Virus record (IMG/VR): IMGVR_UViG_2648501235_000003
Location: 1 to 24,792 of that record
From: a virus
Lineage: Duplodnaviria > Heunggongvirae > Uroviricota > Caudoviricetes
Length of the DNA: 24,792 nt
Direction: 5' to 3' (one strand)
Below, piece after piece: positions 22,777 through 23,166 of the stretch; the stretch's first letter is position 1, and each line of letters starts with the position of its first letter. The notes below the pieces were generated by a model. It ran no database searches. It was not told the origin of the DNA and worked only from the letters and a program-made list of their open reading frames with translations. Both the position numbers and the translations under genes were made by a program.

Positions 22777-23109
22777 TCAGGGTGCAGAAGGACTAAAGAT
22801 AAACGTTTTCTTCACGCCTTTACACGGCCTGTCCTTCTCAAATCGCCATTTTGCCATCGCCTTTACAACCTGCTCATCAAACAGATGGTGCGGCTCTGAA
22901 CGAATAAACTCAATTCGGGTGACAGTACCATCAGCACCAATATCAAACCTCACATCAACCCGTCCCTTTATATAATTTGCCGCTGCATAGGCCGGATATT
23001 GTGGTAATGCCTTAACCAACTGTCGGGGCATATCTGTTTTATGTTGCGTACAGCCCATAACCAGAGAAGACAACAAAATAATTAACGGAAGATTTCTTTT
23101 CATTTTCAT
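22777..23109 (-). CDS. Lipoprotein with TonB C-terminal-domain-like fold (candidate moron)
   Basis: Signal peptide with lipobox (MKMKRNLPLIILLSSLVMGC); mature part has the TonB_C-like pattern PQYPAYAAANYIKGRVDVRFDIGADGTVTRIEFIRSEP..FDEQVVKAMAKWRF; visibly lower GC than neighbouring structural genes. Start at 23109 or 23103; the ORF-track start at 23118 is GTG. Confidence 0.6.
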   Translation of the reverse strand: MKMKRNLPLIILLSSLVMGCTQHKTDMPRQLVKALPQYPAYAAANYIKGRVDVRFDIGADGTVTRIEFIRSEPHHLFDEQVVKAMAKWRFEKDRPCKGVKKTFIFSPSAP

Positions 23110-23135
23110 TCCCCGCACAGATAAAAATAAGTCTT

Positions 23136-23166
23136 ATTCTAACAATGCCGCCCTGTCGGTCATCAA
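23136..23166 (-). promoter_or_regulatory. Candidate sigma70 promoter for the lipoprotein gene
   Basis: Minus strand TTGATG, 19-nt spacer, TGT-TAGAAT (extended -10 like), about 35 nt upstream of the start codon. Confidence 0.3.

Follow-up and report, generated by a model that had tools for sequence, protein, structure and literature searches.

The window analyzed here is a 24,792-nucleotide stretch of DNA from a virus of the class Caudoviricetes (IMG/VR record IMGVR_UViG_2648501235_000003, positions 1 to 24,792). Between its lysis genes and its packaging module, the minus strand carries a small gene whose product, here termed the TonB-like protein, consists of a TonB C-terminal domain behind a predicted lipoprotein signal peptide. 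The open reading frame (ORF) was confirmed at 22777-23103, stop codon included (22777-22779), and offers three in-frame starts: GTG 23118, ATG 23109 (110 amino acids) and ATG 23103 (108 amino acids). The original prediction had described a 110-residue product; the ORF itself stands, whereas the 108-residue form is likelier because ATG 23103 has a Shine-Dalgarno sequence 6 nt upstream (GGGGA, 23110-23114, minus strand, read from the sequence), is the start used by RefSeq/PGAP and is the only start common to the phage-21-type homologues. In an alignment with the phage-21-type gene, AGGA occupies the Shine-Dalgarno position. The coding sequence is identical or near-identical to that of WP_000828072.1, which RefSeq/PGAP annotates in the 108-residue form as a "TonB family protein."

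A resemblance to the C-terminal domain of TonB had been noted from the motif pattern, and sequence comparisons place it far above chance. The domain spans residues 26-104 (22792-23028, minus strand), equivalent to residues 153-231 of E. coli TonB, as judged by profile, BLASTP and structure matches. Pfam PF03544 (TonB_C) is matched with 55.3 bits against a cut-off of 24.6 (E 9e-15) and TIGR01352 with 55.1 bits against a cut-off of 27.1 (E 7e-15); TonB_C and TonB_2 are the only Pfam matches of the protein. Searched with phmmer against PDB sequences, the protein retrieves the C-terminal domain chains of Salmonella and E. coli TonB at approximately 1e-15. BLASTP aligns residues 26-103 with E. coli TonB 153-230 without gaps and at 38% identity; the C-terminal part of the E. 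coli TonB sequence used for this comparison agrees with the PDB chains.

The predicted structure leads to the same family. An AlphaFold2 model has a mean pLDDT of 76, reaching about 90 within the domain, with predicted helices at residues 27-31, 38-42 and 76-84 and strands at 47-55, 61-70 and 94-103. The model superposes on TonB C-terminal domains: the top Foldseek matches are 2gsk_B, from the BtuB:TonB complex (root-mean-square deviation [rmsd] 1.8 A), and 2grx_C, from the FhuA:TonB complex (rmsd 1.4 A), with a TM score of 0.88, and these two chains together with 1u07_A match at probability 1.00, with target-normalized TM scores of 0.82-0.88 and rmsd values of 1.4-2.1 A. Structural neighbors of the model comprise TonB, FusB, HasB and TolA; in the BFVD viral structure library, no match was found at E <= 1e-3.

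Many residues characteristic of TonB are retained. Y163, P164, F180, G186, F202, W213 and F230 of TonB are identical in the TonB-like protein, and Y215 is replaced by Phe; in the ungapped alignment, the YP motif and the aromatics fall at Y36, P37, F53, F75, W86, F88 and F103. The position of TonB Q160 is occupied by Leu (L33), and Q160L of TonB is a functional suppressor allele. Divergence is found around the Q160 region, and the family has an invariant motif of its own, Y-A-x-A-N, where TonB has R-A-Q-A-L. The last strand of the model (94-103) is the counterpart of TonB beta3, which forms the pairing with the FhuA TonB box (PMC11658791).

The traits of an energy-transducing TonB are absent, namely the N-terminal inner-membrane anchor and the proline-rich spacer that spans the periplasm. 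The NCBIfam TonB equivalogs (PRK10819) score 49-74 bits against cut-offs of 265-448, with coverage only of profile positions ~152-240. A second viral family, phrog_34172 (251 positions, unknown function), is also matched, at its positions 163-242 (1e-15), which suggests that some phages encode longer TonB-like proteins.

At the opposite end of the protein, the signal peptide MKRNLPLIILLSSLVMGC obeys the lipobox rule by inspection, and the lipoprotein assignment made earlier (VMGC followed by Thr) holds up. The segment encoded at 23050-23103 (minus strand; read from the sequence) gives a product beginning MKRNLPLIILLSSLVMG-C-T, with a basic n-region, a hydrophobic core, the lipobox (LVMGC) and Thr at +2. 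Written out, MKRN-LPLIILLSSLV-MG-C-T satisfies the [LVI][ASTVIM][GAS]C rule after a basic, hydrophobic signal peptide, with no Asp at +2. Cys18 is thus predicted to be acylated, and sorting to the outer membrane by the Lol pathway is predicted because the residue at +2 is Thr. A lipobox of the form [LVA]x[GA]C without Asp at +2 is kept in all full-length relatives. The tether between Cys18 and the start of the TonB_C domain is only 8 residues long and contains no Pro-rich segment.

As first described, the gene lies between the spanin genes and the packaging module. On the minus strand, the order is Rz with embedded Rz1, a 338-nt spacer and the TonB-like gene. Rz, the i-spanin gene immediately upstream in the late operon, occupies 23442-23909 (PF03245, 2.5e-50), and Rz1, which encodes the true spanin lipoprotein of the phage, the o-spanin, occupies 23504-23689 on the same strand (PF06085, 1.7e-21). 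Downstream lies the convergent plus-strand gene YlcI/YnfO, a DUF3950 protein (22445-22645; PF13132, 4e-20), followed by an HNH endonuclease gene that opens the packaging module (22038-22403, minus strand; annotation/profile match), TerS (21184-21750), TerL (19526-21187) and HK97-type head and tail genes.

In this setting, the TonB-like gene behaves as a moron at the bor position, the lysis-packaging junction of lambdoid prophages, as had been proposed. GC content drops to 0.42-0.46 over 22500-23300 (0.44 in the gene itself) compared with 0.55-0.62 in the flanks and terminase genes, confirming the AT-richness reported earlier. Phage vB_EcoS-569R3 is collinear (Rz, hypothetical gene, DUF3950, HNH, TerS, TerL) and has no TonB-like gene. 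The gene adjoins bor in phage 21 and iss in ST131-type prophages, lying between Rz and a lambda-type Nu1 terminase; it thus occurs beside two packaging modules, the HK97 type and the lambda Nu1 type.

The protein also matches PHROG 1267 (1e-42), a family labeled as lysis, "Rz-like spanin." Spanin identity was considered and rejected: a separate Rz (PF03245) with embedded Rz1 (PF06085) is present, and the TonB-like protein has a folded TonB_C domain. Because the phage already has a full Rz/Rz1 pair, the label is misleading and looks like a mis-annotation by position, although membership in the PHROG family itself is sound. Annotation based on PHROGs would accordingly name the TonB-like gene a spanin gene.

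The family is widespread in E. coli. Copies occur in 1616 of 5426 complete genomes (~30%), 414 of which carry the window type (at least 95% nucleotide identity) and 1201 a type about 73% identical to it. These copies are nearly all chromosomal, every one listed is annotated "TonB family protein," and carriers include EDL933, enterohemorrhagic E. coli (EHEC) of types O26, O103 and O111, ST131 and the E. coli type strain. Among phage records, 98-99% identity is shared with Stx1a-converting phages, JLK-2012 and Lys8385Vzw, 71% with classical phage 21, ev017, Perceval and the PhiR phages, and 41% with a Klebsiella phage in which the gene again lies just after the lysis genes. Relatives at 41% are also carried on Klebsiella IncF and other plasmids, and relatives at 33-51% lie on the chromosomes of Klebsiella, Raoultella, Serratia, Pantoea and Erwinia, where they are not part of prophages. 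An exhaustive profile-free search yielded further short TonB_C proteins (107-133 amino acids), mostly lipobox-bearing and none with Asp at +2, and a scan of IMG/VR gave 219 contigs with near-identical copies only. Loci were searched for with a narrower alignment, an alignment of 17 sequences being too divergent.

Between the two E. coli types, dN/dS is 0.11 even though synonymous sites are saturated, and the protein is therefore under purifying selection and, as judged from these comparisons, functional. Truncated and frameshifted copies also exist.

The gene has been annotated for some time. Current labels are "TonB family protein" for WP_000828072.1 and WP_000830178.1 and "TonB C-terminal domain protein" for phage 21 gp73 (UMO75484.1); the copy in CP-933N has been called "partial tonB-like membrane protein" since 2001, and other old labels read "partial" or "TonB fragment." As an annotation, the gene is thus not new, and it is very common. 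The original prediction knew of no characterized phage protein of this kind, and indeed no functional study of a phage TonB-like lipoprotein was found in the full-text literature, where search coverage is poor for subscription journals; the gene is nevertheless widely annotated and present in phage 21.

A tie to iron physiology comes from the chromosomal relatives, upstream of which Fur boxes were found, a finding that is new here. In the chromosomal copy of Klebsiella sp. R445, the Fur-box core, TGATAATTATTATCA, is perfect and ends 12 nt upstream of the start codon. Of 14 chromosomal loci, 11 have a core matching at least 12 of 14 positions in the 120 nt that precede the gene, and no other such core occurs across the 115.8 kb of those loci. 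The cores (12-14/14) are located at L002:7975-7989, at about position 3971 in L007, L008, L010 and L012, and at L009:3966, L011:3972, L013:3918, L016:3927, L017:3958 and L020:1608. The bearers belong to Klebsiella, Raoultella, Serratia, Pantoea and Erwinia, and because flanking sequences differ between genera, these boxes do not simply represent one inherited promoter. The chromosomal form of the family is therefore predicted to be a member of the Fur regulon. Conserved iron-uptake neighbors were not seen beside the chromosomal relatives.

The type found on Klebsiella phages and plasmids has a weaker array of Fur-like hexamers (10-12/14). Upstream of the gene in the window and in the E. coli lambdoid copies, a Fur box (TGATAATnATTATCA) was not found, the best matches in the window being 8/14 for the core and 13/19 overall (the latter at 23120-23138). 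A Fur box there was rejected, as the window holds 7 sites that match at 13/19 or better. These patterns suggest that the family is linked to iron and TonB physiology and that the E. coli phage copies have come under different control.

One of the chromosomal loci holds a separate curiosity. In a metagenome-assembled genome of Pantoea, a 360-residue glycine-rich protein with a hydrophobic C-terminal hairpin is encoded about 1.7 kb from the TonB_C lipoprotein gene (L017:873-2278), past an integrase fragment and adjoining a small membrane protein that is a possible immunity protein. By eye, the 360-residue protein looks like a pore-forming bacteriocin.

In the window, a putative extended -10 promoter of the sigma-70 type lies at 23136-23163 on the minus strand: ATGACC and TAGAAT are 16 nt apart, TG stands at -15/-14, and 9 of 12 consensus positions are matched. 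The extended -10 promoter proposed earlier is thus present, although such matches are no more frequent than chance would give (3 found versus 2.0 +/- 1.4 expected in shuffled sequences). The block ATTGTyAGAATAAGAC, which includes the candidate -10, is common to the window and phage 21 in an alignment; this is suggestive, though common ancestry could explain it. Overlapping the candidate -10 is a 13-bp perfect palindrome, AATAAGaCTTATT (23126-23138; read from the sequence), that is absent from the phage-21 type and could be an operator for some regulator; scored as a Fur box, this region reaches 13/19 and 8/14, the background level. Rfam gave no match within 22300-23600, and the 338-nt upstream spacer has no unusual folding stability (z = -1.45). 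Whether or not the candidate promoter is active, late transcription from pR' would be expected to read into the gene, which points the same way as the late operon; bor and iss, by comparison, lie on the opposite strand.

The spacer also holds a 26-nt block, CCGGTGCGATGGTGGAAGAAACAGGA (23253-23278, minus strand), that is identical in the upstream regions of the window type and the phage-21 type, whereas the TonB-like genes behind it are only about 73% identical to each other. The block contains the start of phage 21 gp72 (46 amino acids), an ORF cut to 21 codons here (23205-23270, minus strand), and may be a regulatory element or a remnant. In addition, a 418-nt contig filed under the actinobacterium Modestobacter excelsi (NZ_SJEX01000172.1, locus L015) carries the start of a phage-21-type gene with its upstream block and is probably contamination of that assembly.

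What might such a protein do for the lysogen? The reading favored here, by analogy and with a probability set a little below even, is that the TonB-like protein is a decoy, breaking the coupling between TonB and the transporters of the outer membrane. As a lysogenic-conversion cargo gene carried in the lysis-packaging junction of lambdoid prophages, it would supply a complete TonB C-terminal domain held by its 8-residue tether at the inner face of the outer membrane, under the TonB-dependent transporters. There, the domain would bind exposed TonB boxes by beta-strand pairing without being able to pull on them; force transmission would be impossible because the protein has neither a proline-rich rod nor a membrane anchor and does not contact ExbB/ExbD. 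Candidate targets include FhuA, FepA, Cir and BtuB or, alternatively, the TonB boxes of incoming group B colicins. The protein would thus act as a natural dominant-negative TonB, reducing the TonB-coupled entry of phages, colicins, microcins and siderophore-linked drugs. The lysogen would better tolerate TonB-dependent phages, group B colicins and microcins, at the price of lower uptake of iron and vitamin B12.

Engineered proteins provide a precedent. Fragments 33-239, 103-239 and 122-239 of TonB, exported to the periplasm, inhibit the TonB system and abolish ferrichrome transport, and titration of ExbD has been raised as an alternative mode of this inhibition (bioRxiv 10.1101/2020.01.05.895219). 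These fragments resemble the TonB-like protein in bringing a TonB C-terminal domain into the periplasm with no coupling to energy; however, they are artificial, soluble and overexpressed and may titrate ExbD, whereas the phage protein is natural, predicted to be lipid-anchored in the outer membrane and shorter than any fragment tested. Because its tether would be too short to reach ExbD at the inner membrane, the predicted location argues against ExbD titration and for transporters or the TonB boxes of colicins as targets. Protection from phi80 and colicin M was reportedly also seen in the original fragment work, by Howard, Herrmann, Stratilo and Braun (J Bacteriol 2001).

Compared with TonB itself, the TonB-like protein shares family and fold with the C-terminal domain of the E. 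coli and Salmonella proteins (residues ~150-239; 1u07, 2gsk_B, 2grx_C, 8rd6) at 38-41% identity, including the YP motif, the aromatics and the edge strand used in TonB-box pairing. It differs in having no anchor, spacer, ExbB/ExbD link or energy input, in its predicted lipid anchoring to the opposite membrane, in the changes Q160 to Leu and R166 to Tyr, and in ending about 4 residues earlier. Direct homologs of the same length, lipobox and position are phage 21 gp73 (UMO75484.1, 71% identity) and, for the window type, WP_000828072.1 and WP_000830178.1 (97-100%); for gp73 and the PGAP proteins, annotation labels were found and no assigned function.

Functionally, the nearest known systems would be Cor (of phi80, N15, HK022 and mEp167) and Llp (of T5), small phage-encoded lipoproteins of the outer membrane, where the TonB-like protein is likewise predicted to reside. 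Cor and Llp act on FhuA from the periplasmic side and block phage entry; the two have a dedicated fold in common, and the action of Llp is allosteric, by way of the plug. Whereas Cor and Llp are FhuA-specific, the TonB-like protein has the TonB_C fold, and any exposed TonB box would be an expected target. No match to Cor or Llp was found for the protein in Pfam or among its structural neighbors, and the Cor/Llp fold is, by description, a distinct one. The Bor and Iss morons occupy the same niche downstream of Rz/Rz1 and are likewise small lipoprotein cargo of the outer membrane, a location that for the TonB-like protein is predicted. However, Bor and Iss are unrelated in sequence and fold and are encoded on the opposite strand with their own promoter, while the TonB-like gene is co-oriented with the late operon.

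Several observations weigh against a decoy. R166 of TonB contacts FhuA in the crystal complex, and the corresponding position is Tyr throughout the TonB-like family. Presence in ~30% of E. coli genomes sits uneasily with the cost expected of a constitutive TonB inhibitor, and the induction by iron starvation predicted for the chromosomal relatives is opposite to what a simple inhibitor of uptake would call for. As a speculation, Fur induction and inhibition could be reconciled if colicin import, with two TonB-dependent steps, were hit harder than one-step siderophore uptake. In PADLOC, no real match was found for the TonB-like protein or for its DUF3950 neighbor. Expression in the lysogen is presumptive: the putative promoter is a consensus match, a search for intrinsic terminators flanking the gene gave none on either side, and the late promoter would read into the gene in any case. 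Finally, the gene is unlinked to any single type of J, the receptor-binding tail-tip protein. In the window, J is encoded at 2655-6062 (minus strand), and its C-terminal 157 residues are 92-99% identical to those of phi458, Perceval, mEp460 and several Stx1 and Stx2c phages and only 38% identical to those of lambda J. Self-exclusion of the Cor kind, tied to the phage's own receptor, was rejected, as lambda-like and other J types are likewise found together with the TonB-like gene.

Among alternatives to the decoy, one in which the protein helps or gates TonB-dependent transport fares best, though it is considered unlikely. Here, an iron-starvation protein would occupy or prime the periplasmic face of the transporters, or pair with the TonB C-terminal domain to dock TonB, and the phage copy would improve or filter iron uptake by the lysogen. 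The near-perfect Fur boxes over the promoters of chromosomal relatives in five genera predict co-production with the transporters, as such a role would have it, and the high prevalence of the gene speaks against a costly inhibitor. Moreover, TonB C-terminal domains can dimerize in crystals, 1ihr and 1u07 being among the matches. However, the protein has no part that could provide energy or extend to the inner membrane, inhibition was seen with all engineered free TonB C-terminal fragments tested, the Fur box is lost in the E. coli phage copies, and no iron-uptake genes are conserved nearby.

A late lytic function is more improbable still. Transcribed with the lysis genes from the late promoter, it would act at or before lysis, for example by closing transporters, which would spare progeny or superinfecting phages in the manner of T5 Llp, or by aiding disruption of the envelope. 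The gene runs in the direction of the lysis genes and comes directly after Rz/Rz1, from which no terminator separates it; its PHROG match bears a lysis label, and Llp, too, is a lipoprotein of the outer membrane that works on FhuA from the periplasmic side. Against these points, the phage already has a complete Rz/Rz1 pair, and the protein has a TonB_C fold rather than that of a proline-rich o-spanin. Furthermore, close relatives occur on plasmids and on chromosomes outside phages, with Fur boxes, a collinear phage does without the gene, and there is no tie to a single J type.

Equally improbable is reuse of the TonB-like fold for another ligand, such as peptidoglycan, an envelope protein, or a host or competitor molecule, in place of TonB boxes. 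Such reuse is exemplified by FusB, in which a TonB-like domain binds ferredoxin, and structures of the FusB C-terminal domain (7zc8, 9hi3) are among the best fold matches; the invariant Y-A-x-A-N motif, specific to the family, and the divergence at the Q160 region could also reflect a new partner. Yet enterobacterial TonB itself is closest in both sequence and structure, the TonB aromatics and YP motif are kept, and Fur control of relatives fits a TonB-related role. That the gene is a functionless piece of a host tonB, acquired by a phage and now decaying, as the historical labels "partial" and "TonB fragment" and the truncated and frameshifted copies might imply, is scarcely credible given a dN/dS of 0.11 across saturated synonymous sites, a gained lipoprotein signal peptide conserved in all lineages, a domain that is full length and well folded in the model, and presence in 1616 genomes.

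TonB-dependent transporters are entry gates for many phages, colicins, microcins and siderophore-conjugated antibiotics. If the decoy reading is true, the TonB-like protein would be a receptor-blocking phage lipoprotein that works by TonB mimicry instead of a dedicated fold, and it would provide a general, mobile means of uncoupling such gates, in contrast to the FhuA-specific Cor and Llp. The gene is present in ~30% of complete E. coli genomes, among them those of EHEC, ST131 and the type strain, as well as on Klebsiella IncF plasmids. The predicted Fur control of chromosomal relatives suggests, in turn, an unstudied component of the response to iron starvation. In a broader and more doubtful proposal, prophages and plasmids of E. 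coli and Klebsiella spread a natural, outer-membrane-tethered TonB antagonist that, by binding TonB boxes, tunes sensitivity to TonB-dependent phages, group B colicins, microcins and siderophore-linked antibiotics, cefiderocol for example. The chromosomal ancestors, under Fur control, would then act as an unrecognized gatekeeper of TonB-dependent transport, switched on when transporters are derepressed, and in Stx1 phages the antagonist could feed back on iron-repressed stx1.

Two further genes of the window lie downstream of J on the minus strand. A second outer-membrane cargo gene, of the Ail/Lom family (PF06316, 1e-118), occupies 1986-2585. Beyond it, at 608-1927, is a 439-residue tail-fiber-like ORF with a long collagen-like G-x-x run after an alanine/glutamate-rich segment.

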